A stretch of 64,000 bases of DNA. Source: Burkholderiales bacterium. Its GTDB lineage: Bacteria > Pseudomonadota > Gammaproteobacteria > Burkholderiales > Ga0077523. Location: NCBI GenBank assembly GCA_046347985.1, contig JAXMFE010000014.1, positions 26,042 to 90,041 of the forward strand, read 5' to 3'. The notes under the pieces were generated by a model. That model did no database searches. It was not told where the DNA came from and worked only from the letters and a program-made list of their open reading frames with translations. Positions 3,333 to 38,336 of this stretch are shown one piece after another. Numbering within the stretch: position 1 is the stretch's first letter; every line of letters starts with the position of its first letter. The translations under genes were made by a program, and so were the position numbers.

Positions 3333-3342
3333 GAGGGGTGCG

Positions 3343-3708
3343 ATGACCAAGTCCGAACTGATTGCCAAGCTGGCGGGGCATTTCCCCCAGCTCGGTGCCG
3401 CTGATGCCGAACTGGCGGTCAAGATGATTCTCGATGCGATGGCGAAGAGCCTGTCGCAGGGCGAGCGCATCGAGATTCGCGGGTTCGGCAGTTTCGGGCT
3501 GAACTATCGACCGCCGCGCGTGGGGCGCAATCCGAAGTCCGGCGAGAAGGTGCAGGTGCCGGCCAAGTACGTGCCCCATTTCAAGGCGGGGAAGGAATTG
3601 CGCGAGCGCGTGGACCTGCGCGCGGCCGGTGACGTCGACGATTCGGATGACGACATCGGGGTGGCTGCGGAAGCGGCCGCCGTCTCGACCAGCACGTCGG
3701 CTTCCTGA
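3343..3708 (+). CDS. ihfB: Integration host factor beta subunit with an acidic C-terminal tail
   Basis: [11 protein letters not shown] ... [49 protein letters not shown] is the HU/IHF fold signature. The gene lies immediately after rpsA. Confidence 0.93.
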
Positions 3709-3740
3709 CCGGCGGGCGCCGCATCCTGCGAGGCGGGACG

Positions 3741-4016
3741 ATGCGCTTGCTCGGTTGGCTGCTCCGGTTGGTGGTCTTCGCACTGCTGCTCGGATTCGCC
3801 ATGAAGAACACCGCACCGGTCACGGTGCGGTATTACTTCGGAACGGCATGGCAGGCGCCACTGGTCGTGGTGCTGTTGATCGTCTTCGTCGTCGGGACCG
3901 GGGCCGGTATCCTGGCCTCGCTCGGCTATCTGCTGAAGCAACGCAGACAGATCGCCCAGTTGAAGAGACAGATTCCGCAGCCTGACCCGGAGTCACGCGC
4001 GGCCGCGGACGCATAG
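3741..4016 (+). CDS. lapA: LapA-family (DUF1049) lipopolysaccharide assembly inner-membrane protein
   Basis: 91 aa with two hydrophobic helices and VTVRYYFG ... LGYLLKQRRQIAQLKRQI. It sits directly upstream of lapB, as in the yciS-yciM pair. Confidence 0.75.
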   Translation: MRLLGWLLRLVVFALLLGFAMKNTAPVTVRYYFGTAWQAPLVVVLLIVFVVGTGAGILASLGYLLKQRRQIAQLKRQIPQPDPESRAAADA

Positions 4017-4025
4017 CGAAACCGG

Positions 4026-5201
4026 ATGGAATTCGAAACCTGGTGGTTGTTGGCGCTCCCGCTGTTCTTTGCCCTGGGCTGGTTCGCCGCCCGTATCGAC
4101 ATCAAGCAGCTCGTCACCGAGTCCCGGCGCCTGCCCCATTCGTACTTCCGTGGCCTGAACTTCCTGCTCAACGAACAGCCCGACAAGGCCATCGAAGCCT
4201 TCATCGAGGTCGTGAAGGTCGAACCTGAGACCGTCGAGCTGCATTTCGCACTCGGCAATCTCTTCCGTCGGCGCGGAGAGCTGGAGCGCGCCATTCGCAT
4301 GCACCAGAACATCCTCGACCGCGAGGACCTCGGCCAGGAGCAGCGCCTGTCGGCCCTCTTCGAGCTGGGGCAGGACTACCTGAAGGCCGGTCTGCTGGAC
4401 CGCGCCGAGGAGATGTTCCAGCGCCTGATCGGCACGAACCTCGAGCAGCAGGGCCTGCGCTATCTGCTCGAGATCTACGAGCAGGAGAAGGACTGGCTCA
4501 AGGCGATCGAGACTTCCCGCAAGATGGACACGATCAGCGGCGAATCGAGTGCCAAGGACATCGCCCATTTCTATTGCGAGCTGGCCAGCGGGGAGATGCT
4601 CCACCAGCGTCTCGAGACCGCCCGCAAGTATGCGGACGAAGCCCTGGCGGTGAACCGCAAGTGCACGCGTGCCAGCATGATTCTCGGTGACGTCGAATGG
4701 CAGACCGGTCGCGTCGAGGAAGCCATCGAGACGTGGAAGCGCATCGAGGGGCAGAATCCCGCCTACCTCCCGCTGGTCGCCGATCGCCTGCTGGGTGCTC
4801 ACGCCAAGCTGGGGCGGCCGGAGCAGGGGCTGCAGTTGTTGAGCGGCTATCTCGCCAGTTATCCCTCGCTCGATCTGCTGCAGTCGCTCTACCAGGCGAC
4901 GCTGGAAGGGCAGGGCAGCGCGCCGGCATACGAACTCCTGCGCGACGAACTTCGCCGCAACCCCACGCTGGTCGGACTCAATCGATTGATCGAGATGCAA
5001 CTGGCGGACGCGGCTGCGGATCGTCGGGGCGACCTCGAACTCACGCGCAACCTGATCCAGCAGCATTCCCGCAGCTTGTCCTTGTACCGCTGCGACAGCT
5101 GCGGCTTCCGCGCCCGCCAGTTCTACTGGCATTGCCCCGCCTGCCATGCGTGGGAAAGCTACGTGCCGCGCCGAGCGGAAGAGCGAGAGATGGCGGCATG
5201 A
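4026..5201 (+). CDS. lapB: Lipopolysaccharide assembly protein LapB (TPR repeats plus C-terminal rubredoxin-like zinc finger)
   Basis: N-terminal TM helix, TPR-like repeats (LHFALGNLFRRRGELERAIRMHQ ...), and a C-terminal YRCDSCGFRARQFYWHCPACHAW CxxC...CxxC motif. Confidence 0.9.
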   Translation: MEFETWWLLALPLFFALGWFAARIDIKQLVTESRRLPHSYFRGLNFLLNEQPDKAIEAFIEVVKVEPETVELHFALGNLFRRRGELERAIRMHQNILDREDLGQEQRLSALFELGQDYLKAGLLDRAEEMFQRLIGTNLEQQGLRYLLEIYEQEKDWLKAIETSRKMDTISGESSAKDIAHFYCELASGEMLHQRLETARKYADEALAVNRKCTRASMILGDVEWQTGRVEEAIETWKRIEGQNPAYLPLVADRLLGAHAKLGRPEQGLQLLSGYLASYPSLDLLQSLYQATLEGQGSAPAYELLRDELRRNPTLVGLNRLIEMQLADAAADRRGDLELTRNLIQQHSRSLSLYRCDSCGFRARQFYWHCPACHAWESYVPRRAEEREMAA

Positions 5202-6158: not shown

Positions 6159-7118
6159 ATGACAGCCAATGAAACCCTGGCCGCGATGCGCGGCGCGCGC
6201 GTGCTGGTGGTGGGCGACGTGATGCTCGATCGATACTGGTTCGGCGACGTGAACCGCATCTCGCCCGAGGCGCCGGTGCCGGTCGTGAAGATCGGACGCT
6301 CGGAAGAGCGGCTGGGCGGCGCTGCGAACGTCGCTCGCAACGTGGCCGCGCTCGGTGCGCAGGCGGAGTTGCTCGCCGTCGTCGGCGACGACGAGCCTGG
6401 CCGGCTCATCGACGACCTGCTCCGTGCCGATGGCATCAGGGCCTCCCTGCAGCGGGACACGGACATCACGACCACGGTCAAGCTGCGCGTGATCGGACGT
6501 CAACAGCAGTTGCTCCGCATCGACTTCGAGACGGCGCCCGGGCACGAAGCCCTCATGTCCAAGCTCGCGGAATTCGAGCGCCGGTTGCCGAACGTGGACC
6601 TCGTCATTCTGTCCGACTACGGCAAGGGCGGCCTCCAGCACATCGCCCGGATGATCGACAGCGCGCGGCGGCACGCGAAGGCGGTGCTGGTGGATCCGAA
6701 GGGCGACGACTACGCGCGCTATCGCGGCGCGACGCTGCTCACGCCGAATCGCTCGGAATTCCGGCAGGTCGCCGGGAACTGGGGCAGCGAGGCGGAACTG
6801 CAGGAGAAGGCGCAGCGACTGCGGCGGGATCTCGCGCTCGAAGGCCTGCTCGTCACACGCAGCGAGGAGGGGATGACGCTCTATCGCGATGTGGGCGCCC
6901 TGCATGTCCCGACGGTGGCCAAGGAAGTCTTCGACGTGAGCGGTGCGGGAGACACCGTCATCGCCACGCTCGGCACACTGCTCGCGGCCGGCCGTCCCTT
7001 CGAGGACGCCGTGCACTGGGCCAATGTCGCTGCCGGCATCGTGGTCGGCAAACTGGGAACGGCGGTGGCGACGCCGGACGAACTGCTCAACGCTCTGGGG
7101 GAAGGAGGCAACGCATGA
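6159..7118 (+). CDS. hldA: D-glycero-beta-D-manno-heptose-7-phosphate kinase (RfaE domain I, PfkB family)
   Basis: [30 protein letters not shown] ... [14 protein letters not shown] ... [15 protein letters not shown] lies 6 nt upstream of ATG 6159. An alternative GTG 6147 overlaps the pyrF stop. Confidence 0.88.
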
Positions 7119-8110
7119 TCGTCGTCACTGGCGCCGCCGGCTTCATCGGGTCGAACCTGGTCAAGGGACTCAATGACCGGGGAATCCGCGACATCATCGC
7201 GGTCGACAATCTCACCAAGGCCGACAAGTTTCGCAACCTCACGGATTGCGATATTGCGGACTATTGGGACAAGGAGGATTTCATCGAGGCGCTCGTGGAC
7301 GGTGCGTTCGACGGTGACGTTGAACTCGTCTTCCACAACGGTGCGTGCTCCGACACCATGGGCGCCGACGGCCGCTACATGATGGACAACAACTACCGGT
7401 ACACGCTCACGCTTCTCGAGTGGTGCCAGGCGGAACAGGCTCGCTTGGTCTTTGCGTCGTCGGCGGCCGTCTACGGCGCCGGTCCGGAGTTCCGCGAGGA
7501 CCGGGCCTGCGAGAAGCCGCTCAACGTCTACGGCTACTCCAAGTTCCTGGTCGATCAGGTGGTGCGCCGCCAGTGGGATTCGCTTTCGGGACAGGTCGTC
7601 GGCCTGCGCTATTTCAACGTCTACGGACCGCGCGAATCGCACAAGGCTCGCATGGCGTCGGTGGCCTACCACTGCTTCAACCAGTTCCGCGCAGACGGCA
7701 AGGTCAAGCTGTTCGAGGGGAGCGGGGGATACGGTCCCGGCGAGCAGCGGCGGGACTTCGTCTCGGTCGAGGACGTGGTGGCGGTGAATCTCTGGCTGAT
7801 GGATCACCCGGACGTATCGGGCATCTTCAATCTCGGCACCGGACGATCCCAGACCTTCAACGACGTGGCGTGCGCCACGGTCAATGCCTTGCGTCGGGCC
7901 GGTGGCGACCCGTCGCTCTCCCGCGACGAACTCGTGGCTCAGGGGCTCCTCGAGTACATGCCGTTCTTCGAGGGGCTGAAGGCGAAGTACCAGAGTTTCA
8001 CGCAGGCCGACATGACCAAGCTTCGGGAGGCCGGCTACACGGCGCCATTCCTGACCGTCGAGGAAGGGGTGGCGCGCTATGTGACCTGGCTGCAGGCCGA
8101 TGCCGCCTGA
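7115..8110 (+). CDS. hldD: ADP-L-glycero-D-manno-heptose 6-epimerase
   Basis: [20 protein letters not shown] (Rossmann fold) ... YGYSKFL ... FNVYGPRE. There is an ATGA overlap with hldA. Confidence 0.93.
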
Positions 8111-14227: not shown

Positions 14228-14315
14228 GGAGGTGTGGCAGAGTGGTCGATTGCACCGGTCTTGAAAACCGGCAACGGGCAACCGTTCGTGAGTTCGAATC
14301 TCACCACCTCCGCCA
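14228..14315 (+). tRNA. tRNA-Ser (anticodon UGA), encoded CCA
   Basis: Acceptor GGAGGTG/CACCTCC, anticodon stem CCGGT/ACCGG with loop CTTGAAA (UGA), long variable arm, T-arm GAGTTCGAATCTC, discriminator G plus CCA. Confidence 0.93.
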
Positions 14316-14495: not shown

Positions 14496-14762
14496 ATGCG
14501 TGGCGCCGACGCCTGCAACCACGCGCTGTTCACCTCGGTGAAGCTCGAGGACTTTGTTCCTCCAAAGCATTCGCTGCGACCGATTCGTGCCTGGGTCATC
14601 GACGCGCCGGCGAATTCGGACGCCGAGTTCTCGGCAATGTACGAAGGCGATGTCAGATGCGGTCGCCCGAACATCGCGCCGGAAGATCTCATGGGCGCCA
14701 TGCTGCTTCAGGTCCGCTGCAGCCGGCGGCAACGGGTCGAACCGATCCAGGACAACGATTGA
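14496..14762 (+). mobile_element. IS5/IS1182-family transposase N-terminal fragment (remnant)
   Basis: LFTSVKLEDFVPPKHSLRPIRAWV ... FSAMYEGDVRCGRPNIAPEDLMGAMLLQV matches the DUF772/InsH N-terminal domain pattern (SLEDLVP.DH.LR ... GRPSI.PE.L...LLQ). It terminates after 88 codons with no DDE domain and no recognisable inverted repeats. Confidence 0.7.
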
Positions 14763-15917: not shown

Positions 15918-16322
15918 GTGCGATCGGCGCCCGTCAAGATCGGTGTCGAGCCCTGGGCAATGGAGGAGGTATCGGTGGCTTTCACTGAGTGGGAGCAGAA
16001 GCGCTGCGAACGCGACCTCAAGAAGTTCATGGCGCATCGGCGTCCGACGCTTCATGTCCGGCCACGCCTGGATCTCGGCTTCAGGATCCACGGTCGGAGC
16101 GTCGAGATCTTCGAGATGCGGCCCGATTGGAAGGAGGTGGGCGAGGCCATCGAGACACCCGTGGCAATAGCGACCTTCGTCCGTAACACCAGCACGTGGA
16201 AGTTGTACTGGATGCGCGGTGACATGAAGTGGCATGGCTACCCGCCGAATCCCGTACTGCGAGACTTTTCCCAGGCGCCGGCGGTCGTCGACCGGGATGA
16301 ATTCCGTTGCTTCTTCGGCTAG
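15918..16322 (+). CDS. DUF3024-like protein
   Basis: VEIFEMRPDW ... VAIATFVRNTSTWKLYWMRGDMKWHGYPP ... DRDEFRCFFG resembles the DUF3024 pattern. The start may be ATG 15960. Confidence 0.6.
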   Translation: MRSAPVKIGVEPWAMEEVSVAFTEWEQKRCERDLKKFMAHRRPTLHVRPRLDLGFRIHGRSVEIFEMRPDWKEVGEAIETPVAIATFVRNTSTWKLYWMRGDMKWHGYPPNPVLRDFSQAPAVVDRDEFRCFFG

Positions 16323-16551
16323 ACGCCCCATGGAATCTTCCGGCCGGCCGCCGATGCCAAGCCATACCTTCCCTTGCCGCCGTCCGGATGTGCGGACAAG
16401 CCCGAAGTGACGAGGCGGGGTCAGTCCGGGGGGGGGCCGGAATTGCGCAGGCGCGAGGTGGCTTTGCCGCAGTTGGGAATCCTGCTCGCGGTCCTCGGTG
16501 CGGGCAGCCTCTATCGCTTGACCGTCATCGACCGCAACAGCGGGCAGCGCT

Positions 16552-17997
16552 TCAAGTGGTGGCAGGATGTTCGAATGCGGGCAGCGCAGCCTGCCGTGCC
16601 GTGAAGGCGACATGGGCCGCGACGGCCAGCAAGCCAAGAAAGCAGGCGACGGCTGTCCCGAGCACGGAACGAATGCCCAACAGGCACGCGGCAACCAGGA
16701 GTCCGGCGGTTACCGCTCTGAGTATTCGGGTCATGACCGCGCGCACGTTCAGGCCTTCCGCGACCAGCAGTGCACACGAGTAGCCCAGCGTCAGGACGGT
16801 CCCCGCAGCCCCGTAGGCGGCGACCGCGCGCAGCGGGTCATGAGCGAGCGCTCCCCAGAGGAGCGCGCCGCAGCGTGCTGCCGCCAGGAGCAGATTGAAC
16901 AGAAACTCGGCGCGCTGCCAATGACGGAGCACCACGAGCGAGGGCAGGTGCGCGCCCACGATGGCGGCGAACACCGAAGGCACGAGGCATCGCGCAAACT
17001 CGCCTGCCGGCGCCCAGTCGGGACCGAAGGCGAGGGTGAACGCATCCGGCGCCACCGTCGCGAACACGATGGCCGGGGTCGCGGTGAAGGCCACCAGAAG
17101 ACGAAACACGGCGTCGGCAAGTTCGGGAACACGGGCGTCGCGCTCCGCGTCGCGTATCCTCGACAGGAACGACTGCTCGATGGCCTGGGCGACGAGGTGC
17201 GCCGGTCCGACGGTGACGAGGAACGCCAGGCTGTAGAGGCCGGCCGCCTGGACCCCGAAGGACACGCCGATGATGAGCACGGACAGCTGCTGTCCGACGA
17301 TGTTCACGATGGCGGACCCGGTGGATACCAAGGGCAAGCGGCGGTGCTGCTTCGCGGCGGCCAGCAATCGCGCGCGGGAAACTTGCCGCAGCGCCTGCCG
17401 CAGTCCGGTGCGGCCGAAGAGAACGGCCAGGGCCGAGAATCGGGCAGACACGAGCCCGACCACCAGCCCTGCATTCAGGACGGCGAGCATGCCGAGCGTG
17501 ATCTGGACCGCCACCTGCACGATGCCCTGCGTGACACGGCTCGCCGCTACCTGGAAGAGTGTCCGGCGGCGCGTATGCCACCCTGCGAGGGCAAGGGCCG
17601 ATCCGCTGACGAACGTGGCAATCGGCAGGAGCCACGACAGGCGGGCGATAGAATCGAGCGGAGGCCGCCCGCCGCCGTAGACCGTGCTTGCGTGAAGCAG
17701 GACCGCCAGCAGCAGCGAGGTCAACGCTGACGCGGCGACGGATGCGACGACCAGTGCCGCGGCGTCTGCGTCGTCTTCCGGAACGGCGATGGCGAGGTGG
17801 TAGCGGAGCGTGCAGAACGACAGTGCGATGGCGAGTGTCGCCTCGAAGGTGCCGAGAACCCCGAACTGCATCGGGTCGTACAGCCGCGTGAGGACCGGGA
17901 CCGCGGCGAACGCGATCAGCGGACCCACGGCAGAGGCGCCGGCGAGGAGACCGACATGGCGGAAGAACGACGGCTCCTGCGGTATTCCTTTCGGCAT
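16552..17997 (-). CDS. Wzx-like polysaccharide/oligosaccharide flippase (MOP superfamily)
   Basis: About 480 aa with about 12-14 TM helices. N-terminal VPVLTRLYDPMQFGVLGTFEA is typical of O-antigen/EPS translocases. Start taken at MPKGIP (17997). The track ORF extends to 18069. Confidence 0.75.
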   Translation of the reverse strand: MPKGIPQEPSFFRHVGLLAGASAVGPLIAFAAVPVLTRLYDPMQFGVLGTFEATLAIALSFCTLRYHLAIAVPEDDADAAALVVASVAASALTSLLLAVLLHASTVYGGGRPPLDSIARLSWLLPIATFVSGSALALAGWHTRRRTLFQVAASRVTQGIVQVAVQITLGMLAVLNAGLVVGLVSARFSALAVLFGRTGLRQALRQVSRARLLAAAKQHRRLPLVSTGSAIVNIVGQQLSVLIIGVSFGVQAAGLYSLAFLVTVGPAHLVAQAIEQSFLSRIRDAERDARVPELADAVFRLLVAFTATPAIVFATVAPDAFTLAFGPDWAPAGEFARCLVPSVFAAIVGAHLPSLVVLRHWQRAEFLFNLLLAAARCGALLWGALAHDPLRAVAAYGAAGTVLTLGYSCALLVAEGLNVRAVMTRILRAVTAGLLVAACLLGIRSVLGTAVACFLGLLAVAAHVAFTARQAALPAFEHPATT

Positions 17998-18027
17998 GGA
18001 CGCGACTGACCGGCGGACAATGAGAAC

Positions 18028-20196
18028 ATGGAGATGACACCTGCCGGTCGCAGGACGACTACCCCGCATCGCTGGCGCTACGTACTATTCCTGTTCGGTC
18101 TGATCCTGGCAATCCTTGCCGCTGCTCATGCGGCTCACGCGAGGCTGGCATCGCTGGAGCAGTGGCGGTCCGATCCGGTCGCGCATTTCGCCGGCGGCGT
18201 TCCGGTCATGACCACGCTCGACGCCTACTACTCGCTGCGGCTCGCGAAGGCGAGGCACGACGGAACGTTCGTCGCGCACGCCGACGATCCGCTCCGGCAC
18301 TACGAACGACTGCAACGGTCCCGGGACGCCTCCGAGTACGTCGGCACGGGCGAGCCCGCCGAGTGGGCGCCGCAGCGCACACCGCGGCGGATGCCGCTGC
18401 TTGCCGAGCTGATTGCGGTGCTGATCCCCGTGGTGGGGAGTGCGGAGACGGCGGGGCTCTACCTCACGCCGGTGCTCGCGAGCCTGTTCGTGATTCCGAT
18501 GTTTCTCTACGCGTGGCGACTCGGCGTGCCTGCCGCGGGGCTGCTGGGCGCGCTCGCCGGAGCCTTCGCCCCGGTGTACCTGTCGCGCACGCAGATCGGG
18601 TTCGTCGATACGGACTGCCTGAATCTGTTCTTCCCGTGGCTGTCGGCCCTGCTGGTGTTCAGCATCGACCGCTCGGCACGAAGTCCACGTGTGCTGGTCA
18701 CCGCCGCCGCACTCGGCTTCGCGCTCTACCTGTACTTCCGCTGGTACGAGAAGGCGGCGCTCTCCGCGCTCTACTGGAGCGCGCTCGCAGGGTGGCTGAT
18801 GGTGCAGCGGCGCGGCGCCCGGGAGATCGCGCTCGCCGTGATCGTCTGTATCGTCTGCAGTCACCCGGTGCAATTGGCGCTGTGCGCGGACAACGCGGTC
18901 AGCCTGCTCGGGCGGTACTGGAGCGGGCGCACGACGAGCGATGGTGCGTCCCTGGTGGACGCGATGTTTCCCAACGTGATGGAGACCGTGAGCGAACTGC
19001 GCGGGCCGAGAGGCCCGGGCGCGGTGGGGGCCGTCCTCGGCCACTGGATCCCGGGAACCGTGGGGCTGCTCGGGTTTGGCGCCCTCGCGATCCGGCATTG
19101 GCGGGACTGCATTCCGCTGGTCCCGATCCTCGTCATGGGGGCATTCACCTTCGTCAGCGGCGCACGCTTTGCGATGTACCTGGCGCCGCTTGCAGGGCTC
19201 GGCCTGGGGTATCTGCTGACCGTCGCCGTGCGGTCGGTCGGGCTTCGCCTCGCGCCCGGACAGGATGCATCAGGTGTGTCGACCGGAGACGACACCCGGC
19301 TCGTGGCTGAGTCTCTGGCCACATACGCGGTGATGGCGGTCGCGTTCTTTGCCTGGGTGCAGCCGGCGATGGCCCGCGCCGTGCCGTTGACCTTGCCGGC
19401 CGTTCCCGCGCAGGACGTGCTGGCCGTGCAACGCGCTGCGGTGCGCATGCCGCCGGGGGCTCGCGTGTGGACGTGGTGGGATCGTGGATTCGCGTATTCA
19501 CACATCGCCGGCTGGACGGTCTATCACGACGGCTCGGCACAGTACACGCCGCAGACGCATGTCATCGCGCATACCTTCGCGTCCGATTCGCCGGGCGCCT
19601 TGCGTGCAGCGATGGCACGGGTGGATCGGATCGGGAACAGGGGCATCACGGCAATTGCCGCGCAGGTACGCGAACGCGCCGCATTGCTGCATGCGATCAC
19701 GGAACCCGAGACCGCGGCATCGGCTCAGGCGGCGCAGTTCGTCGTGTTCTCGCACGACATGCTGCGCTCGGCGATGGCGCAGCGTTACGTCGCCGGCTTG
19801 CCGATCCGGACGAAGGACGGCGCGGCGACCGCCTTCCTCCCGCTGCCTTGCTCCGGGTTTCGCGGCGATCGCCTGGAGTGCGGCAGGGCCTCGGTGGATC
19901 TCGCCGCCGGCCGGTTCGACGACGGACGGACGATCCGGCGGCTCGACATCGTCGACGGAGGCACGGTGAGCAAGCGGGTGGACTATGCGAACACCTCCGA
20001 CCTGGTCGCCGAGATCGTCATCGGACCGGACCGCAGCATCGAAGTCCTGCTCCTGCCGGACGAGGTCTACCGCTCGAATCTCAACCGGATGTTCCTCCTG
20101 GGCGAGTACGACCGGTCGCGGTTCGAGGAGGTGTACCGGGAGGTGCCTCGACTGCGCGTCTATCGCGCGGTCCCGGACGCGATCCGAGGTCCATGA
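18028..20196 (+). CDS. STT3/PglB-type oligosaccharyltransferase (GT-C fold)
   Basis: 722 aa with a multi-TM N-terminal domain plus a soluble C-terminal domain. Motifs: TTLD65AYYSLR (EL1 acidic motif), GFVD194TD196CLNLF (compare PglB YYDTDML), T320VSE323 (EL5 TIXE/SVSE), SGARFAMYLAP, W483WDRG487 (WWDYG hallmark) followed by YHDGSAQY ... THVIAHTF, and a C-terminal MFLLGEYDRSRFEEV resembling the PglB C-terminus. Confidence 0.8.
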   Translation: MEMTPAGRRTTTPHRWRYVLFLFGLILAILAAAHAAHARLASLEQWRSDPVAHFAGGVPVMTTLDAYYSLRLAKARHDGTFVAHADDPLRHYERLQRSRDASEYVGTGEPAEWAPQRTPRRMPLLAELIAVLIPVVGSAETAGLYLTPVLASLFVIPMFLYAWRLGVPAAGLLGALAGAFAPVYLSRTQIGFVDTDCLNLFFPWLSALLVFSIDRSARSPRVLVTAAALGFALYLYFRWYEKAALSALYWSALAGWLMVQRRGAREIALAVIVCIVCSHPVQLALCADNAVSLLGRYWSGRTTSDGASLVDAMFPNVMETVSELRGPRGPGAVGAVLGHWIPGTVGLLGFGALAIRHWRDCIPLVPILVMGAFTFVSGARFAMYLAPLAGLGLGYLLTVAVRSVGLRLAPGQDASGVSTGDDTRLVAESLATYAVMAVAFFAWVQPAMARAVPLTLPAVPAQDVLAVQRAAVRMPPGARVWTWWDRGFAYSHIAGWTVYHDGSAQYTPQTHVIAHTFASDSPGALRAAMARVDRIGNRGITAIAAQVRERAALLHAITEPETAASAQAAQFVVFSHDMLRSAMAQRYVAGLPIRTKDGAATAFLPLPCSGFRGDRLECGRASVDLAAGRFDDGRTIRRLDIVDGGTVSKRVDYANTSDLVAEIVIGPDRSIEVLLLPDEVYRSNLNRMFLLGEYDRSRFEEVYREVPRLRVYRAVPDAIRGP

Positions 20197-20386
20197 CGGG
20201 GGAATGTTGTCGATTCGCCTTACACGAGAGGGGCGCTGAAGCGTACGTGATCGACGAATCGACAGCCGGCGCAAGAGTTAGCGATGCCAAGCGCGTTTCT
20301 TGCTCCGGCGCCGTTTGATGCTCCAGATGGTCCCCGGACGCGCGCCGGGCACAAGCAGAACAACTCACAAGAAGGAGTCTCCGGCC

Positions 20387-21148
20387 GTGGCGTTCAAATT
20401 GCCCCTGACGTCTTCCCCCCTGAATTTGACGAAAACCCTCACGGCGGTCCTGGTTGCTGCGGGTGTTCTTTCCGGCGTCACGATGTCCGTTGCAGCGCCG
20501 ATCACCAGCACACCGCAGAACTTCGACTTCGCCATTCACACGAGCGGGAACGTGTTCATCCCCGCAGACTCGCAGGACGCTCCGGGCTTCCACACGTTTA
20601 CGGGCAGCGCCACCTCCACTTTCAATGAGTTCGATTCCTCGCTGGGAACGCTCCAGCAGGTCGTGTTCACGTGGCAGTCACCGTTGTCCGCCAGGGTCAG
20701 CTTCGGTCCTCCCGGATTCGACGACAGTCTTCATGCTTCCATCGCACCCACCGTGAGTGCCGAGATCGGCGGCGGGGTCGGGACGTTGTTCAGCAGCCCG
20801 TTCTCCGCGACCGGGGCCACCGGGCAAACGGTCCTGAACGTCACCGCGTCCGTCAACAACAGCCGGACCTATTCGGCTCCCGGCGATCTGGCCCTCTTCA
20901 TTGGCACCGGCACCTTCAACACGGTTCTGAATCTGGCAGTCAAGGTGGGGGCCGACAACGGGACTGCCGACATGTCGGCGGACTGGGGCACGCAGGCCAA
21001 CCAGGGACGACTGAGCCTGGAGTACATCTACGAAGCGCGGCCGACCACCGGGCAACTGCCGGAGCCCGGCGTGCCGCTGCTCCTGGGAACCCTGGCGGCC
21101 ATCGGCATCGGCGTGACGGTTCGCAAGCGCGGCCAGGCTGGGCGCTGA
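20387..21148 (+). CDS. PEP-CTERM sorting-domain secreted protein (possibly a choice-of-anchor-E-like domain)
   Basis: GAAGGAG lies 9 nt before GTG 20387. Signal peptide LTAVLVAAGVLSGVTMSVAAP. The C-terminus LPEPGVPLLLGTLAAIGIGVTVRKRG is PEP plus a TM helix plus a basic tail. FDSSLGTLQQVVFTW resembles choice-of-anchor domains. Confidence 0.85.
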   Translation: MAFKLPLTSSPLNLTKTLTAVLVAAGVLSGVTMSVAAPITSTPQNFDFAIHTSGNVFIPADSQDAPGFHTFTGSATSTFNEFDSSLGTLQQVVFTWQSPLSARVSFGPPGFDDSLHASIAPTVSAEIGGGVGTLFSSPFSATGATGQTVLNVTASVNNSRTYSAPGDLALFIGTGTFNTVLNLAVKVGADNGTADMSADWGTQANQGRLSLEYIYEARPTTGQLPEPGVPLLLGTLAAIGIGVTVRKRGQAGR

Positions 21149-21173
21149 ACGGCGAATCAGGCGCAATCCGCAG

Positions 21174-21205
21174 AAAGGGCATGCTTCGGCATGCCCTTTT
21201 TTTTT
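21174..21205 (+). terminator. Rho-independent terminator after the PEP-CTERM gene
   Basis: aaagggcatgc-ttcg-gcatgcccttt followed by a T-run of about 9. Confidence 0.85.
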
Positions 21206-21293
21206 CCGCTGGCGCAGAGTCCCCGGGGGACGTGGTGACGGCATGTCGGCTGCGAGACTTCGATCGGGTGGGGCGGACGACTCGGGAGCGAGG

Positions 21294-21776
21294 ATGACCA
21301 TCCCTCTGATGCCTGCTCGTTCACCCGCCCAGTGGCGCCAGGCGCGGCGGCTGGTAGAGGCTTACGTGGCCTCGCTGGACATGGATCTCGCGTTCCAAGG
21401 CATTGCGCACGAGCTGGACAATTTGCCGGCGGTGTATGGGGCGCCCAAGGGCGCGTTCCTCCTGGCGCAGGACAGCCGGCGGTTCGTCGGGTGCGCAGGA
21501 TTGCGCCCTCTCGCCGGTGACGCCGGAGAAATCAAGCGGCTGTACGTCAGCCCCGCAGTCCGAGGTCGCGGGCTGGGGCGAAACCTCGCGGAAGGCATCA
21601 TCGCCGTGGCGCGAGAGCTTGGATATGCCCGCCTGCTTCTGGACACGCTCCCCTCGATGGCCCGCGCAAGGTCCCTCTACGAGTCGCTGGGGTTCCGGGC
21701 GATTGCGCCCTATCGCCACAACCCGGTGCTGGGCACGACGTTTCTCGAACTCGCGCTCCAGGGAAGATCCCGTTGA
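21294..21776 (+). CDS. GNAT family N-acetyltransferase
   Basis: IKRLYVSPAVRGRGLGRNLAEGIIAVARELGYARLLLDT ... SLYESLGF is the acetyl-CoA-binding motif A (R/Q-x-x-G-x-G/A). Confidence 0.85.
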   Translation: MTIPLMPARSPAQWRQARRLVEAYVASLDMDLAFQGIAHELDNLPAVYGAPKGAFLLAQDSRRFVGCAGLRPLAGDAGEIKRLYVSPAVRGRGLGRNLAEGIIAVARELGYARLLLDTLPSMARARSLYESLGFRAIAPYRHNPVLGTTFLELALQGRSR

Positions 21777-25821: not shown

Positions 25822-26892
25822 ATGCGCACCGGGACCGAATCCCCGCCCCACCTGCAATCGCTTCCGACCCGCCGCCCGGCTCGCGGCGCCTTCCGTCCGT
25901 CGCTCTGCGCTCTCATCGGTGCCACGGCCATCGTCGCGACGGGCTGCGGAACCGTGCCGCGACCCGCGCCCATGCCCAAGCCCCACCCGTTGGGCGAGTC
26001 CTACGGGCAACTCTACGATCCCGCGAAATACGAGGCCTGCCGGCAGAAGACGCCGGGCGATTCCCGGTGCCGGAAATTCATCCTCAAACGCAACGAGAAC
26101 CCGGAGCTCTGGCCGTATCCGGACGTTCCTCCGATGAAGTGGCCGGACCCGCCCAAGGGGAGCGTCTACCGGCCGGGGATGACCGGTGTCGAGTACTGGC
26201 GCGCACTCTGCAAGGCCGAGGCCGGCGAGTTCATCTACAAGACCGTGGAGAACGTGGACGGGATCTATCAGATCCGACCCCGCCGACACGAGACGGACTA
26301 TGCGCTGATGGATCCGTATGTGGTCGAGGATCCGTATGGGCACACGATTGGGGAAGAGGATCAGGAGATCTTCTTTTCTTATGTGTACCCGAGGGAGCGT
26401 TGGGAACCGGACCTTGCGGGTTACTCGTATATGGAAAGCGCGCCGCTAGTCGAAGATGCGAAATCGACGTCTCCGGAGAGGCACTCGTCGCTAAGGCAAG
26501 CCCGATCGGAGAACACACGTTTCGAGCGCTATTTCGGATACGACAGAAGGTACGTGAACACAATGCGCATGGAGTGGACGGGTTCGTTGGCGAGCAACAT
26601 CGGCTTCACGTGGCGGGGGATTCGGCGAACGACGGACCGGGAGTTGGGCGTCGCCGGTGGCGAACTTGTTGTCGTCGATTTGCGCACAAACGAAGTACTC
26701 GGGTTACGACGAGGATTCGTTTTGGGTAGCAACCTCGATGAGGGCAGAACTGTTTGGAGTTGGAACGCGTGCCCCGAATACTCTGCAATGGATGGAAAAG
26801 GAAGGCGCCTCAAAAGAAACAAATACTTTGATTTCGGGCTTTGGTTCATTTCAAAAGTAGCTAAGCCGTCCGGACAGCGGTATCCCAAATGA
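25822..26892 (+). CDS. Hypothetical lipoprotein, translationally coupled to the RTX giant gene
   Basis: Lipobox-like LIGATAIVATGC after a basic N-terminus. No recognised domain. The stop TGA (26890-26892) overlaps the ATG (26889) of the next gene. The 3' third has distinctly lower GC. Confidence 0.65.
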   Translation: MRTGTESPPHLQSLPTRRPARGAFRPSLCALIGATAIVATGCGTVPRPAPMPKPHPLGESYGQLYDPAKYEACRQKTPGDSRCRKFILKRNENPELWPYPDVPPMKWPDPPKGSVYRPGMTGVEYWRALCKAEAGEFIYKTVENVDGIYQIRPRRHETDYALMDPYVVEDPYGHTIGEEDQEIFFSYVYPRERWEPDLAGYSYMESAPLVEDAKSTSPERHSSLRQARSENTRFERYFGYDRRYVNTMRMEWTGSLASNIGFTWRGIRRTTDRELGVAGGELVVVDLRTNEVLGLRRGFVLGSNLDEGRTVWSWNACPEYSAMDGKGRRLKRNKYFDFGLWFISKVAKPSGQRYPK

Positions 26893-29800
26893 GTGAAGTG
26901 GAGGAATTCTCAGGGGCGGCACTTCGGGCGCTCGAAGCTCAGCTCAGTGCGGATTCGTACTTGGTAGATGGAAGTGGGGTGCCTGTACAAGATCTGAGGG
27001 CCGCGTTGCGATCTGGGAACAACAACTTGGCGCCTTCAGTCCTTGTCGACGGAGTCCCGACTCAGAACGAATTGTTGATCTCAATTCCGACCGCAAGTCC
27101 TGATTCTCCGATACTGCCGGGCGCCACTCGTTTCCCAGTCTCACGGGCAGACCAGTTTGGGGCTTCAAGCGGCTATTCAGTTGTAACGCAAACCCTAAAC
27201 GACGCCACCGGCCTCTCCATCACCGTCCTTCGTTCGAACGCGGACCCCGGCGCCTACACGGTCGCCTTCCGCAGCAGCGAATTCCAGACGCAGCGCAACG
27301 GCGGCGATCGTGAGCGCGACATCTACGGCGCCGACATCGATATGCTGGAGCACGGATTCGCCTGGGGCCAACTGGCCGCGGCGGACCGTTGGCTGACGCA
27401 GGCGCGCGCGCCCGGTGGACTGCTCGCAGACGCGCAGTCGGTGACGCTGACGGGGTACTCCCTCGGCGGTCACATCGCGACGGTGATGACGGAGCTGCAC
27501 GCCGAGGACATCGCTTCGACTTGGGTCTTCAACGGTGCCGGACGTGGAGCGGTGGCGCCGGGTTACACGATCCGCGAACTGCTCGATGCCTACACCGCAC
27601 TGGTCGCGGATCCCGACGCGCGCATTCCCTGGTTGATCGCGCCGCGACCGTCCGACCCGATCTCGGAGGCAATGTTGCTTGCGGCCCGCCGGGAGTCCGG
27701 CAATCCCCTGTCGGACGGCAGGGCCACGCTGTACGAATCGGCCCGTCACCGGTGGGCCAACGCCGTTCTTGGTCCCTACGCGAGCGGTCTCGTGTTGTCG
27801 TCGTCGATCATCGATGACGCCATCGATCCGGTGGCCGACGCCAAGACGTACTACGTGTACGGGATGGCCACGCATCACGACGACACGATGACGGCGCTGA
27901 CCGGCATCGCGCCGACGGCGAACCGGATACGGGTGTTCATCGAGGACCAGCCGCTGTACTTCGGTCTCCAACTGGGGGTCTTCTCGTCGGCGGCGGAGAA
28001 GTTGAACAGCGACTTCATGCGCACGCACAGCATCACGCTGCTGGCGGATTCGCTGGCGCTCAGCCGCATCTTCGCGCGGGTGGACGAGGCGCTGACGCAG
28101 GACGGGATCGACACGATCTTCGCCATCGCCTCGAATCAGATCAGTCGGGCGGATTTCAATGCCAGCGCCGCAAGCGTCGAGGCGAATTCGCTGGAGAACG
28201 CGCTGGATGCGTTGCGCTGGGCGTTGCTTCCCGAGAGCGCCCTGGTCGGCAAGCGCACGACCGACTGGGATCCGAGCCCCGACGGCTTCGGCAATCTCGA
28301 CAACCGCAACCGGTTCTACGATCGGATCAACGAACTCGGTCTGCAACTCGACCGGACGGCCGGTACGCACTACACGATCACGCCGCTCGCCACGATGACG
28401 TGGAAAGGGGACACCGGATTCTCCGGATTCTTCACGCGGCAGACCGTCGCCTATGTCATCGGACGACCGTTGTCGCCTGCCGTGCTCGCGATGCGTGCGA
28501 AGGAAGATTCGTACGTCGGGGAGGCCTACCGGACGGCGCTGGAGAATCTCGCGCCGTTCGCGCTCGTGGCCGACCGGGCCATCTACGACCCGGCGAAGGT
28601 CGCGCTCGACCGGTTCTCCGAGCAGTACCTGAAGGACCGGGCCCTGTTCCTCTCCAAGCGCCTGGAGATGAACCTCGACAACAAGACGGCGCCCGGCGGG
28701 GCCGGTGTCATTCCCGTGTTCCTAGAAGATCGCGCGTCGGGGACGCGGATCGACTGGATCCGCAAGGAGCCGGACCGGCGCGGCACGGACAACCCCATTC
28801 ACGTCAAGTTCGGCCTCGACGACAACCCGGCGCTGGAGACCATCGACGGCGGCGGCAATGACGACCGGCTGTACGGACGAGGCGGCAACGATGTCCTCCA
28901 CGGTTTCGCGCTCAACGATCACCTGGAAGGCAACGAGGGCGACGACGAGTTGTGGGGCGGGTCGGGACGCGATGCGTTGCTCGGCGGACGGGGCGACGAT
29001 GTCCTGCACGGGGAATCGGGCAACGATGACCTCGATGGCGGCGCCGGCAGCGATTGGCTGTACGGGGGCGACGACAACGACCGTCTGACGGGCGGCAATG
29101 ACGACGACCGGCTGTTCGGCGGACGCGGATTCGATACGTACGTCGTCGGGTTCGGCAACGACACGATCGTGGACGACGGGGATGGCGGAACGATTCGGAC
29201 CGTCGCCGGGACGTCCGTCTCGGGCGCATTCGAGAAGCGCGGCGAGAGCTACGTTCTCCAGACCAACGGGTCCGTCACGGCGCGCCTGGAGGGGACGTCC
29301 CTGTGGGTATTTCTCGGCCCGCTCGGCAGCGTGCGCATCGACGGCTTCCGGAGCGGCGACCTGGGCATCACGCTGGTCGACGTTCCCGCCAAGGGGGCGA
29401 TGGCCCGCGGCTACGTGGGGGACTTCGTGCCCGTACCCGCGGGGGACGTGGGCTGGTTGCGGGACGAGTGGGGGAACGTGGTCGTCAGCACCGTGGCCGA
29501 GGACGGACGTCGGGACGAATACCTCGGATCGCCGTCGGACGATTCGATCTTCACCTACTTCGGACGGGACGTCGTGTCCGAGAGCTGGGGCGGCGACGAC
29601 GTCATCTCGCTCGGGTTCGACGACGACTCGGGGAGCGGCGGGAGCGGCAACGACACCGTTTCCGGCGATGCCGGGTGGGATGCGGTGGTCGGCGGAGACG
29701 GGGACGACCGCCTGTTCGGCGATCACGAGCGGTCCGTGGCCGACGCGATTGCCGCGGGCGTGCTGGCGGATCCGCGCTTCGCGGAGGCCGATTGGCTCGA

Positions 29801-32800
29801 CGGCGAAACGGGTAACGATGTCATCGACGGTGCCGACGGGGACGACCTCCTGTTCGGCGGACTCGGTGACGACATCCTGGTCGGCGGCACCGGCAACGAC
29901 CTGATCCTGGCGGATCAGACGATGGCGCCATCGCTGTCCGTGCTGGATTGGGCGGCGACCGATCGCCATCCCGGCTGGCATTGGGAGCCGCAGGTCGCCG
30001 ATCCGTTCACCGTGCGGGTTTCGGAGGCCGACCGGCATCAGCACAGCGACTCGACCGTGATCTATGCCGGTGGTGCCGGGAATGACGTCGTCCACGCCGG
30101 TTCGGGGAACGACTTCGTGGCGGCGGGCGGCGGCAGCGACATCGTCGTCGGGGGTGATGGGGCGGACGTGATCGCCGGCAACGACGGCGACGACACGCTT
30201 CAGGGCAATGCCGGGGACGATCGCATCACCGGCGACAGCGGAACGTCCCGCATCGAGGACCACATCGTCGTGGCGGGCAACGATGTTCTCGAAGGCGGCA
30301 GCGGCAACGATTGGCTGCAGGGCGAGGGCGGCGACGACTATCTCGACGGCGGAACGGGCAACGACGTGCTGTTCGGCGATGGCGATTCGGTCGACGGCGG
30401 CGCCCAGGGAGACGACACGCTGGTGGGCGGTGACGGCGATGATCGCCTCGTCGCGGATGGCGGGCGCGATCTGCTGCAGGGCGGCGATGGTCGGGACGTG
30501 CTCGAGGGGGGCACGGGCGACGACGTTCTCCTGGGCGGTGACGGCGACGATCGTCTCGGCGGTGGCGATGGCGACGATCTGCTGGATGGCGGCAAGGGGG
30601 CGGACCTCCTGCGGGGAGGCGCCGGCAACGATACCTACCTCGTGGACGACCGTGACCGCGTCGAGGATGACGAGGGCGAGAACACGATTCGCTTCGCGAA
30701 CGGCGTGACGCCCGACGCCGTGGGAATGACGGTGCAGAACCGGGGCGGCGTCGTCTACGCGCAGATTTCGACCGGCAGCGCAGTGCTGGTGGAATGGAAG
30801 GTCCGGGCGCTGCCCGGTCAGGCGAGCGCAGCGGCGTCCCCGGTTCCGCTTCCGACGTCCTCCTTCGTGCTCGAGTTCGAAGACGACAGCCGTTACGACA
30901 GTGCCGAGATGCTGGGACGTTGGTGGGGCGACGCGGCCACGCTGACGGGAACCCATGGCGACGACAACCTTGCCGGTTACGGTGGAGACGACGATCTCCG
31001 TGGCCTCGCGGGCGACGACATCCTCCACGGATATGGCGGGAACGACCGGCTGGCAGGGGGCTTCGGCGCCGACACGCTGGTCGGCGGCGCAGGCGACGAC
31101 GTGATCGATGGCGGTGGCGGCGGCGACACGTACGTCTTCTCGTTGGGCGACGGCCACGATGTCGTCACCTCCGGTCCTGGCGACGTCCTGGTGCTGGGGG
31201 CCGGCGTCGCGCCGGAGAATCTCCAACTCGTCCGGCAGCCCGACGGCGACCTGCGAATCGACCTGCCGATGTGGGGCGATTCGATCCGGTTCCGGAATGC
31301 CTTCGGCGCAGCGGGTCAGGTCTTGCCACGCATCGAGTTCGTCGACGGCGGCGTCGTGTCGCGGGCGGAGCTGCTGGACCTGCCGGTGGCCCCGATCGAA
31401 GGCACGGCGGGCAACGACCACCTCACGGGTGGCGCGGAAGCCGAAATGCTCCTCGGTCTCGCGGGAGACGATGCTCTCGACGGCGGGCCGGGCAACGACA
31501 CGCTGGTCGGCGGCCCCGGCGCCGATTCGTATGCGATGTCGCTGCGCATGGGGTTCGATACCGTCCAGGAGGAGGCCGGGACCGGCGGCGTCGTCCGGCT
31601 GGGAGCGGGATTGTCCTGGGACGCCCTCGTGCCCGAGCGCGACGGCGCGGATCTGATCCTCCGCGTTGCCGGAACCGGCGGCGAATCGCGTCAGGGCCTG
31701 CGGATCGTCGGTGCGGGGGCGTCGGCATCGGGCTGGTTGGTTGCCGGCGACGGCACGCAGACCCGGTCGATGGCGGAGGTCGTGGCCTCGTTCGAGTCCG
31801 GACTGTCGTCGGATCCGGACTTCGTGCTGAAGCGCGATTTCCGCTTCGCCTTCGTGCACGCGCACGATGCGCTGGCCCGGTCCGAGGGGCTGGTGCACCG
31901 CGACGACTTCGACTACGCCAGTCCCGCGTACGACGCCCAGTTCGTCCAGAGCCGGGTCGTGACGGTGACGCATCGTCTCGACGCCGAGGAGAACGTCGTG
32001 GCCTCGGAGAGCCACGACAGAACGCCCTGGGCGGACGTGTCGCCGACGCTTCTTCACCGCGATCTGCGGTCCCTTGTCTATCTCGATGTCGACGCGACGG
32101 GACCGGATCCGATCATCGTCGGCGATCGAGGCGTCGAGACGAGCGAGTGGAGCGAAACCGCGGGACTCGCGAGAACGACCGGTGCGGAGCGCCGGGTGGA
32201 CGTTTCCACCGAGACGATCCGGATCCTCGCCGATCCCGCAGATGTTCCGCCGGGCGAGCCGGTCCGGGAGCGTTCCTACGACGTGACGTTCGAGCGGGAC
32301 GTGCGCTTCGTCGAGACTGCCGGCAGCGACGTTCCCGTCCAGGTCGTGCAGCGCACGATCACCGTCCCCGTCGTGCGGGGCGACGACGACGACAATCGCA
32401 TCCGGTACCGGGCGCGGGCGATCATCGACGGCGGCGACGGGAACGACGTGATCGAACCGACGGCGGACTGGTTCGAGCGCTTCGACGATCTGCCGACGCG
32501 GAACGGTGTTCTCGTGGACGCCGGCGCGGGCGACGATCGGGTCCAGGGACAAAGCCTCGAAGACGTGCTGCTCGGCGGCACGGGAAGCGATCAACTGCGC
32601 GCGGGCGGTGGCCGGGATCTGCTGATCGGCGGCGATGGCAGCGACAAGATGGACGGCGGCGCCGGTGCAGACCGGTACCTGCTGCGCGCGGGCGAGCACG
32701 GCATCGACATCGTCACGGACGTGAGCGCGGATCTCGTCGTGGCCGAGACCACGGCGCAGGCGCTGCTGGAGCACTGGTATGCGAACGAGCACGCCGGGGA

Positions 32801-36164: not shown

Positions 36165-36388
36165 GGCACGTCGCGAAGAGGGGGAGGGCCGATGTTACCC
36201 CGGGGCACGGCGGGTGCCCGGGTGTACCCTCCGCGGGCGCATTCCGCGGCGGTCGCGTCTCGGGAGCGCAGTCGAACGACGTGCCGGACAGGCGAGGCGC
36301 CGTGCGTCCCGGGATCGCGCAACGGCTCGCCCGGAATCCGCCGGCGTGCGGTGCCCGATCGCGGGGTACGGCGAGGCAGAGGGGAACG

Positions 36389-38218: not shown

Positions 38219-38336
38219 GGGGGCTCCGGGCCAAGGGGCGACCCGCGATGGTGGCACAGAGGGCGTCCGCGGCGCGAGGCGCGAAGGTCGCGACGCAGCG
38301 GCGGGCGAGGCGACCGGCGCGCGGGATAATGCAACG

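Follow-up and report, generated by a model that had tools for sequence, protein, structure and literature searches.

A PglB/STT3-type oligosaccharyltransferase gene conserved beside flippase and PEP-CTERM protein genes: a candidate N-glycosylation module in a Burkholderiales genome

PEP-CTERM proteins are widespread in floc- and biofilm-forming bacteria and have been suspected of being glycoproteins since 2006, and to our knowledge no enzyme has previously been tied to this suspected glycosylation. Outside Campylobacterota, Desulfovibrio and a few vent organisms, hardly any bacterial N-glycosylation of the PglB type has been characterised. In PglB the WWD motif binds the Ser/Thr at +2 of the acceptor peptide, and R331 recognises the Asp/Glu at -2 of the D/E-x-N-x-S/T sequon. 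Characterised PglBs come from Campylobacter, Helicobacter, Desulfovibrio, Nitratiruptor, Sulfurovum and Deferribacter (PMC6025236), and the N-linked oligosaccharyltransferases (OSTs) of bacteria other than Campylobacter include enzymes with altered or relaxed specificity at -2 (PMC6025236, PMC4894442). The locus described here lies in a 64,000-nucleotide stretch of a Burkholderiales bacterium (assembly GCA_046347985.1, contig JAXMFE010000014.1, positions 26,042 to 90,041; hereafter the window, in whose own numbering positions are given) and contains three genes, which encode a PglB/STT3-type OST, a Wzx-like flippase and a PEP-CTERM protein with a choice-of-anchor-E domain.

The three genes may form a dedicated module in which flippase, OST and acceptor bring about the N-glycosylation of an exosortase substrate, a reading to which we assign a probability of roughly 0.6. 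Its basis is computational, and we infer the acceptor, the site, the carrier, the glycan and the order of transfer relative to exosortase cleavage. A lipid-linked oligosaccharide (LLO), presumably on undecaprenyl pyrophosphate (Und-PP), would be assembled by enzymes encoded elsewhere in the genome and carried by the Wzx-like MOP flippase to the periplasmic face of the inner membrane, and the PglB-type OST would transfer the glycan en bloc to Asn. The preferred, possibly dedicated, acceptor would be the product of 20387-21148, a Sec-exported choice-of-anchor-E beta-sandwich protein, with its PEP-CTERM helix tethering it at the inner membrane during transfer, until exosortase processing. The predicted target is N191, in a D-N-x-[S/T] sequon of a hairpin loop, and subsequent processing by the exosortase would send the glycoprotein to the cell surface or matrix.

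The flippase, OST and PEP-CTERM genes are a conserved three-gene unit across a monophyletic STT3 clade. Hidden Markov models (HMMs) built here for the PEP-CTERM family and the flippase were used to screen 174 fetched loci (numbered with the prefix L), and linkage was counted for loci whose OST is at least about 32% identical to that of the window, with at least 900 nt of downstream flank required for the PEP-CTERM count. In about 24 of the 27 loci with enough flank, 0-433 nt separate the 3' end of the OST gene from the PEP-CTERM gene, and the flippase gene adjoins the OST gene in about 22 of the 25 such loci with upstream flank. Neither gene was detected by the HMM screen in more than 120 loci with more distant OSTs. 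All PEP-linked OSTs fall in a single clade of 25 in a neighbour-joining tree of 146 STT3 sequences rooted on C. lari PglB. Of the remaining five clade members, L094, L100 and L104 lie on contigs that stop too early, and L089 and L091 are genuine exceptions. An earlier sequence-only reading of this DNA had described the flippase and OST genes as a pair sitting alone. The phylogeny and neighbourhoods of the homologues instead put a conserved third gene, the PEP-CTERM/choice-of-anchor-E gene at 20387-21148, beside that pair in a monophyletic OST clade.

Gene order is not fixed within the clade. The sub-clade of the window, L001, L002, L087 and L088 has a divergent flippase gene and a co-directional acceptor gene, and the sub-clade that includes L004, L005, L093, L097, L099, L101 and others has a co-directional flippase gene 1-12 nt upstream and a convergent acceptor gene 10-65 nt downstream. 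The three genes thus remain together despite differing order and orientation, and linkage that survives rearrangement is the classic signature of functional coupling. The linkage of the flippase to the OST across the clade also argues for a dedicated lipid-linked glycan stream.

Relatives of the OST are few. A word-indexed search of 5.8 billion proteins recovered 57, and an exhaustive HMMER search of 1.84 billion representative proteins recovered 161 at E <= 1e-30, about seven of them at least 36% identical; this rarity may be why the clade escaped notice. The closest named relatives are from Betaproteobacteria, Burkholderiaceae, Burkholderiales and Rhodoferax metagenome-assembled genomes (MAGs) and from soil metagenomes, which agrees with the earlier suggestion of a lineage outside the characterised Epsilon- and Deltaproteobacteria groups. 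Distant relatives (at most about 34% identical) occur in Deferribacteres, Nitrospirae, Thermodesulfobacteria, Aquificae, SAR324 and 'Deltaproteobacteria'. Module genes are split in some MAGs: the OST gene is in two pieces in L005 (10001-12242), the flippase gene is in two to three pieces in L012 and L003 (L003 15689-17058), and the L012 acceptor is truncated (split or truncated L012 genes at 1908-4062 and 6302-8107). In draft MAGs these splits may be assembly errors or real decay.

The OST-linked PEP-CTERM proteins share a sequon. D-N-x-[S/T] stands at one alignment column in 19 of the 21, about 35-45 residues ahead of the PEP motif (34 residues for N191 of the window protein), and takes forms such as ADNGT, PDNNS, SDNLT, WDNGT, SDNAT, ADNST, VDNST and DDNAT. 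The middle residue is G, N, L, A or S, and Ser and Thr alternate at +2, a pattern expected of a glycosylation sequon and not of a fixed structural motif. Many members of the second sub-clade have a further copy, PDN[GT]T, seven to nine residues upstream. The closer database homologues P0059, P0060, P0062 and P0064 also have D-N-x-[S/T]; P0063 has V-N-N-S by MAFFT alignment, and hmmalign did not put its sequon in the column. Among 30 distant choice-of-anchor-E/PEP-CTERM homologues aligned to the same model, D-N-x-[S/T] is found at the column in none (Fisher p = 4e-12 against the linked proteins) and N-x-[S/T] of any kind in eight, as compared with 19 of the 21 linked proteins (p = 9e-6); Cys is frequent there. 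Genomic context was looked up for three of these distant homologues, none of which lies near an STT3 gene; two of the three have Cys at the column and the third (P0073) has G-N-A-S, with no preceding Asp.

In the AlphaFold2 model of the window protein (P0058), N191-G-T193 lies in a hairpin loop (191-195) between the last two beta-strands (177-190 and 196-216). The loop has locally lower confidence and is presumably flexible, the type of site used by PglB-type enzymes. The equivalent of R331 is absent from the window OST (A335) and Asp is conserved at -1 of the sequon, so the sequon rule of this enzyme probably differs from D/E-x-N-x-S/T. Desulfovibrio PglBs have been reported to glycosylate an internal RDNAT site (PMC4894442). 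Two Gammaproteobacteria MAGs have, upstream of a related OST gene, secreted proteins with long collagen-like G-P-[ST] repeats (L009 1579-5199 and L010 1412-2779), and in L009 the flippase gene is downstream of the OST gene. The Cys-rich C-terminal domains of these collagen-like proteins contain DNGT, DNAT and DNAS, which hints that the Asp(-1)-Asn context matters to the OST lineage. R325, two residues after E323, was considered as a clade-specific reader of the -1 Asp and dropped, since Arg occurs there in only 12 of the 25 clade members.

The OST could also serve a general N-glycosylation system, modifying many periplasmic or surface N-x-S/T proteins among which the PEP-CTERM neighbour would be one, perhaps abundant, substrate. 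Characterised PglB enzymes do have many substrates, and the catalytic apparatus of the window OST is fully conserved. Other secreted proteins near related OSTs, the collagen-like ones of L009 and L010, have DN[GA]T sites, and the clade loci L089 and L091 are without a PEP-CTERM gene. Yet one protein family stays tightly linked across about 35-100% OST identity despite rearrangement, and sequon conservation is specific to the linked proteins. The other PEP-CTERM proteins inspected (window 44886-45368; L001 6382-7023 and 1796-3256; L002 5907-6668) have no sequon or one, and no DN-x-[S/T]. We regard a general system as unlikely, and the dedicated module remains the reading followed below.

By family, fold and catalytic residues, the 722-aa product is assigned as a genuine PglB/STT3-type GT-C OST and is predicted to be catalytically active. 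The reading frame at 18028-20196 is intact, and every motif that the sequence-only reading had listed was found at its residue in the translation (Table 1). Pfam STT3 (PF02516) matches at 68.6 bits (cut-off 24.5), and the Pfam scan of the protein gave no match to ArnT, PMT, Wzy_C or another GT-C family. Its sequence matches in the PDB are PglB and STT3 only, the best being three C. lari PglB entries in three colinear segments. The profile of an alignment of 42 OST homologues (A1), which is also the basis of the conservation counts and of the AlphaFold2 model, matches C. lari PglB (5ogl) with E 1.4e-55 from residues 84 to 712, nearly full length, and also matches the C. jejuni PglB C-terminal domain, eukaryotic STT3A/B and archaeal AglB.

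The OST model has a mean predicted local distance difference test (pLDDT) score of 91.6 and a predicted template modelling (pTM) score of 0.90. Foldseek against the PDB ranked PglB 6gxc, 5ogl and 3rce at the top (E about 1e-22, template modelling (TM) score 0.67-0.72) and eukaryotic STT3 and A. fulgidus AglB second (TM about 0.5-0.6, about 0.55), followed by AftA, DPY19, ArnT and PMT at 0.3-0.45 (ArnT 0.34, PMT about 0.3). The PglB/STT3-type identity proposed from the sequence alone therefore stands: the best profile matches are STT3/PglB and not ArnT, PMT or O-antigen ligase, and the model, compared at fold level, is closest to PglB (TM about 0.7, as against about 0.3 for ArnT and PMT). The protein is only about 20% identical to C. 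lari PglB. The PglB equivalog model NF050801 of NCBIfam scores 65.2 bits against a cut-off of 1300, so the equivalog level is not reached, and the archaeal model TIGR04154 (archaeo_STT3) matches weakly, at 26 bits with a model cut-off of 450. The window OST is thus placed by its sequence in the STT3/PglB family, but not in a Campylobacter-type pgl system.

Residue equivalences to C. lari PglB were taken from HMMER alignments and from a separate alignment including PglB residues 84-712. D65, R187, D196, E323, R380, W483, W484, D485, G487 and H500 are invariant in the 42 homologues, and D194 and T320 are conserved in at least 90% of them. As judged from these alignments, the window OST retains its WWD peptide clamp and the residues for metal binding, catalysis and pyrophosphate binding. 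Several positions that contact the LLO or the peptide differ from C. lari PglB. The Tyr position of WWDYG is R486 in the window and N, L, R or Y within the clade, and the R331 column is Q, L, R or A. M578 is invariant in the clade, and the I572 position, S581 in the window, is K, S, A or G across it. An STT3 alignment of loci L001-L166 was used for comparison with the wider family at window residues 192, 486, 488 and 581. In the wider non-Campylobacter bacterial STT3 family, the C. lari I572 position is Lys in 110 of 120 sequences (D-M-[IL]-x-K), a form closer to the archaeal/eukaryotic DK motif than to MxxI, and the C. lari Y152 position (window residue 192) is Arg in 114 of 120. The module clade is set apart from this family by Trp/Phe at 192, the loss of the WWDYG Tyr and Phe in place of Y468.

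These substitutions bear on a further possibility, that the glycan is passed to a lipid, to a polysaccharide or to water (release of free oligosaccharide), with the PEP-CTERM protein an associated surface or matrix component. The WWDYG Tyr, Y468 (F488), H485 (Q505) and the MxxI Ile all differ from C. lari PglB, a flippase and an OST could feed the exopolysaccharide-related pathway typical of PEP-CTERM organisms, and PglB itself releases free oligosaccharides. However, WWD and all catalytic acidic residues are invariant, the closest structural and sequence relatives are all protein N-OSTs, and this reading would leave the neighbouring protein's conserved sequon to coincidence. A non-protein acceptor is accordingly judged quite improbable, and transfer to the PEP-CTERM protein is still preferred.

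The neighbouring gene encodes, by its sequence, a member of the Wzx-like MOP family, and flipping of an LLO is its predicted role. Its longest reading frame is 16552-18069 (minus strand), with the ATG at 17997 as the likely start, giving a product of 481 aa that is also called on two identical public contigs, L173 and L174. Pfam Polysacc_synt_3 (PF13440) matches above its cut-off (E 7e-11, 42.3 bits, cut-off 23), the NCBIfam MOP flippase and Wzx models match only below theirs, and a sequence search against the PDB gave no match. The proposed pairing of a Wzx-like flippase with the OST, about 30 nt apart, is borne out: the gap before the OST ATG at 18028 is exactly 30 nt, and it is 46 nt in L001 and 29 nt in L002.

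Genes for making the glycan were not found nearby, as the sequence-only reading had also noted for a pgl set and PglK. Pfam scans of the window open reading frames (ORFs) gave no pgl-type glycosyltransferase set, PglK/ABC flippase, glycosyltransferase cluster or initiating phosphoglycosyltransferase, and the only sugar-related genes of the window are a lone GT2 at 38199-39092 and a hexapeptide acyltransferase at 35553-36194. Gene calls around the OST homologues likewise gave no adjacent pgl glycosyltransferases, sugar-modifying genes or PglK. It is possible that the OST module hijacks an existing Und-PP-glycan.

The 20387-21148 product (P0058, 253 aa) combines a signal peptide with a choice-of-anchor-E domain and a tripartite PEP-CTERM tail. 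NCBIfam choice_anch_E (NF033208) matches at 42.7 bits (cut-off 23.8), and the corresponding proteins of L001 and L004 score 35.2 and 43.9. The C-terminus reads ...QLPEPGVPLLLGTLAAIGIGVTVRKRGQAGR and the protein ends in ...TTGQLPEPGVPLLLGTLAAIGIGVTVRKRGQAGR, a textbook PEP-CTERM signal whose tail is LPEP-GVPLLLGTLAAIGIGVTV-RKRGQAGR. P225, E226 and P227 are invariant in A3, the alignment of database proteins that underlies the AlphaFold2 model of P0058 (pLDDT 74), and the model has helices at 229-250 (PEP-CTERM) and 14-28 (N-terminal hydrophobic). Orthologues of the protein exceed the PF07589 cut-off (23.7-25.1 versus 20.7), and the OST-adjacent genes of L001, L002, L003 and L004 encode homologous PEP-CTERM proteins. 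A structure search with the acceptor was uninformative, with weak beta-sandwich/jelly-roll matches, the best to Bdellovibrio Bd1399 at TM 0.35-0.49. The sigma-54 motif TGGCAC-N5-TTGCW, chosen as the motif reported for proteobacterial PEP-CTERM genes, does not occur upstream of the gene (0 in 20197-20386) and occurs in the window as often as expected (20 versus 20), and a promoter and terminator scan of 16300-21400 gave nothing exceeding the shuffled expectation.

A second PEP-CTERM gene lies at 44886-45368 on the minus strand (Pfam PF07589, 22.2 bits). From its likely Met (MNVRSVAHT...) the product has about 59 residues, consisting of a signal peptide, about eight residues (DVPIRV) and a PEP-CTERM tail, with hardly any mature domain. 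This gene, and further PEP-CTERM genes in L001 and L002, suggest that the genome has an exosortase system.

Table 1. Positions of the module genes, of nearby elements and of key OST and acceptor residues, with their C. lari PglB equivalents
Feature	Position in window	Length or residues	Strand	C. lari PglB equivalent	Basis or remark
tRNA-Ser(TGA)	14228..14315		+		ARAGORN; 2.2 kb past flippase gene 3' end
DUF772 (IS-family transposase N-terminal) fragment	14496..14762	88 aa	+		Gene call; weak Pfam match on identical contigs L173, L174
Wzx-like MOP flippase gene	16552..17997	481 aa	-		Divergent from OST gene; Pfam Polysacc_synt_3
Divergent intergenic region between flippase and OST start codons	17998..18027	30 nt	.		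Read from sequence
PglB/STT3-type OST gene	18028..20196	722 aa	+		Pfam STT3, family profile, AlphaFold2, Foldseek
TTLDAYYSLR, including D65		OST 62-71	+		External loop 1 (EL1) motif
D65 codon	18220..18222	OST 65	+	D56	EL1 catalytic Asp; invariant in 42 homologues
R187		OST 187		R147
GFVDTDCL, including D194 and D196		OST 191-198	+		DxD motif
D194-T195-D196 codons	18607..18615	OST 194-196	+	D154-T-D156 (D194/D196 = D154/D156)	DxD
T320-V-S-E323		OST 320-323	+		External loop 5 (EL5) motif
E323 codon	18994..18996	OST 323	+	E319	EL5 T-x-x-E; invariant
A335		OST 335		R331
GARFAMYLAP, including R380		OST 378-387
R380		OST 380		R375
W483-W-D-R-G487		OST 483-487			WWDYG variant
W483-W484-D485-R486-G487 codons	19474..19488	OST 483-487	+	463-467 (WWD 483-485 = WWD 463-465)	WWDYG variant
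F488		OST 488		Y468
YHDGSAQY		OST 499-506
Q505		OST 505		H485
THVIAHTF		OST 510-517
M578		OST 578		M569
S581		OST 581		I572
C-terminal motif LGEYDRSRFEEV		OST 691-702
PEP-CTERM/choice-of-anchor-E protein gene	20387..21148	253 aa	+		Proposed dedicated acceptor; GTG start; AAGGAG ribosome-binding site
N191-G192-T193 codons	20957..20965	Acceptor 191-193	+		Conserved, proposed acceptor sequon; translation GADNGTADM
PEP-CTERM sorting signal	21059..21145	From P225-E-P227	+		P225-E-P227, hydrophobic helix, basic tail

Several observations weigh against a dedicated module. The clade loci L089 and L091 have ample flank and no PEP-CTERM gene, and the OST neighbours in the Gammaproteobacteria loci L009 and L010 are collagen-like proteins. 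L090 and L127 keep the PEP-CTERM gene with Cys for the sequon Asn (6252-7085 in L090 and 6130-6885 in L127; D-C-V-T and D-C-D-S), and they are the only two clade loci with no flippase gene within 4 kb. D-N-x-[S/T] could be a structural turn of the sub-family and no modification site, and the STT3 context was checked in three of the 30 comparison proteins only. The WWDYG Tyr and the MxxI Ile are replaced in the window OST (R486 and S581). The window PEP-CTERM protein falls under the cut-off of the PEP-CTERM HMM TIGR02595 (13.1 versus 16), and the OST and acceptor genes, 190 nt apart, may not be transcribed together. No exosortase gene is present among the scanned ORFs of the window, so sorting of the acceptor is assumed, and no linked genes for glycan assembly were found, so no donor is assigned.

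Upstream of the module, housekeeping genes for a PALP enzyme, phosphoenolpyruvate carboxykinase, a PolB-exonuclease-like protein, an RNA methyltransferase and Bax1-I precede the tRNA-Ser gene, which is followed by the DUF772 transposase fragment, DUF6855, glyoxalase and DUF3024 genes and then by the flippase, OST and PEP-CTERM genes. Beyond these lie genes for a GNAT protein, a metallo-beta-lactamase fragment, a serine beta-lactamase-family protein and a 2884-aa RTX protein. The sequence-only reading had placed the pair in a tRNA-Ser-associated island. The tRNA and the adjacent DUF772 fragment (14496-14762), the sole mobile-element trace near the module, are there as it implied, but Pfam and a tblastn search with the L002 integrase revealed no integrase in the window, which also has no second copy of the tRNA-Ser 3' end and no repeat longer than 13 nt, and GC is flat along it (about 0.62-0.70) with no local anomaly, which leaves the case for an island weak. 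The GC content at third codon positions (GC3) of the three module genes is 0.80-0.84, like that of their neighbours. Module contexts differ among genomes: the proteins that flank the module in L001 and L002 have no tblastn match in the window, so synteny does not extend to the flanks, and in L002 an integrase gene and toxin-antitoxin genes lie close by. It is plausible that the cassette moves horizontally. A silent relic, that is, a horizontally acquired and decaying remnant on a tRNA-Ser island with no current function, would fit the tRNA-Ser gene and transposase fragment 2-3.5 kb away, the flanking genes that vary among genomes, the integrase and toxin-antitoxin genes of L002 and the frameshifted genes in relatives (L005, L012 and the L003 flippase), but is highly improbable, as the three window ORFs are unbroken and share the high GC3 of their neighbours, no catalytic residue is lost, the window has no GC anomaly, integrase or att repeat, clade-wide conservation implies purifying selection, and the frameshifts sit in draft MAGs and may be assembly errors.

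The GNAT gene was considered as a fourth member of the module, since one also follows the L001 acceptor gene, and was rejected because tblastn detects no homology between the two and their orientations differ. The giant 2884-aa protein (26889-35543, plus strand) has 16 matches to RTX calcium-binding repeats, an HCBP_related domain and a He_PIG Ig domain, and is probably a type I-secreted adhesin; the hexapeptide transferase and GT2 genes lie just downstream of it. A P-type cation ATPase ORF at 39070-43509 (minus strand) has 1479 aa, with the ATPase domains starting at about residue 633, so that either the protein is extended far at its N-terminus or the gene is shorter than the stop-to-stop ORF. 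A LonB/LonC-like protease (57592-63109, minus strand; AAA_32, LonB lid, LonC helical and Lon_C domains) is encoded upstream of two large minus-strand ORFs that have no Pfam match, 57592-59553 and 59741-60535.

If the module reading is true, the range of PglB-type N-glycosylation widens to include Beta- and other Proteobacteria with high GC from soil, sediment and sludge, and the long-suspected glycosylation of PEP-CTERM proteins gains a first concrete mechanism. The module offers a testable triplet of enzyme, substrate and site. For glycoengineering, it would provide an OST that is compact, comes with a natural acceptor domain and a non-canonical sequon context, lacks R331 and has an altered LLO-contacting Tyr, and such an OST could widen the glycans and sites usable for glycoconjugate production. 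In a full-text literature search that paired PEP-CTERM or exosortase with oligosaccharyltransferase, PglB, STT3 or N-glycosylation, only archaeal or unrelated papers came up. What appears new, on computational grounds, is a known enzyme class in a new lineage, a new conserved genetic architecture and a specific predicted substrate. The chances are about even that this is the first bacterial STT3/PglB-type N-OST dedicated to a PEP-CTERM/exosortase substrate, a portable three-gene cassette that reads D-N-x-S/T and not the Campylobacter -2 rule and forms a bacterial counterpart of the archaeal AglB-archaeosortase link.

The window OST resembles Campylobacter PglB (3RCE, 5OGL, 6GXC) as a single-subunit GT-C OST of about 710-720 aa (TM about 0.7) that shares the catalytic residues D56, R147, D154/D156, E319, R375 and WWD, and its C-terminal periplasmic domain is colinear, down to LGxYD..FE. 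It differs in being only about 20% identical, with A335 for R331, WWDRG for WWDYG, F for Y468 and MxxS for MxxI. The window has no adjacent pgl glycosyltransferases and a Wzx-type MOP flippase instead of the ABC flippase PglK, and it encodes one candidate acceptor beside the OST, in contrast to the many scattered substrates of Campylobacter. The PglBs of Desulfovibrio and vent organisms (D. desulfuricans, D. gigas, Deferribacter desulfuricans, Nitratiruptor, Sulfurovum) are likewise N-OSTs from outside Campylobacter, the RDNAT site accepted by Desulfovibrio PglB has Asp at -1 as does the module sequon, and Deferribacter-type loci are found among the distant relatives of the window OST. However, these enzymes are at most about 30% identical to the window OST and branch outside the module clade, and the flippase and PEP-CTERM genes are missing from all of their loci. 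Arg is typical of these enzymes at the position of Trp/Phe192 in the module clade, and Lys at the C. lari I572 position.

The archaeal AglB and archaeosortase A/PGF-CTERM system (TIGR04154) also ties an STT3-family OST, genomically or by co-occurrence, to the substrates of a sorting system, and archaeosortase acts on N-glycoproteins such as the H. volcanii S-layer glycoprotein (PMC6098224). That system differs in being archaeal, in its dolichol carriers, in its PGF rather than PEP motif and in its multi-substrate OSTs. Among the PEP-CTERM/exosortase (EpsH/XrtA) substrates of choice-of-anchor-E type (NF033208), the window protein has the same domain build, but linkage to an STT3 gene was found in the module sub-family only, which also has D-N-x-[S/T], and distant members of the family mostly have Cys or no sequon at the column. 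The dedicated O-OST/acceptor pairs (TfpO/PilO-pilin and PglS-ComP) follow the same logic as the proposed module, with an OST gene beside that of a single acceptor and Und-PP-glycans made elsewhere. TfpO/PilO and PglS, however, are Wzy_C-family O-OSTs that modify Ser/Thr, whereas the module would use an STT3-family enzyme and an Asn sequon.

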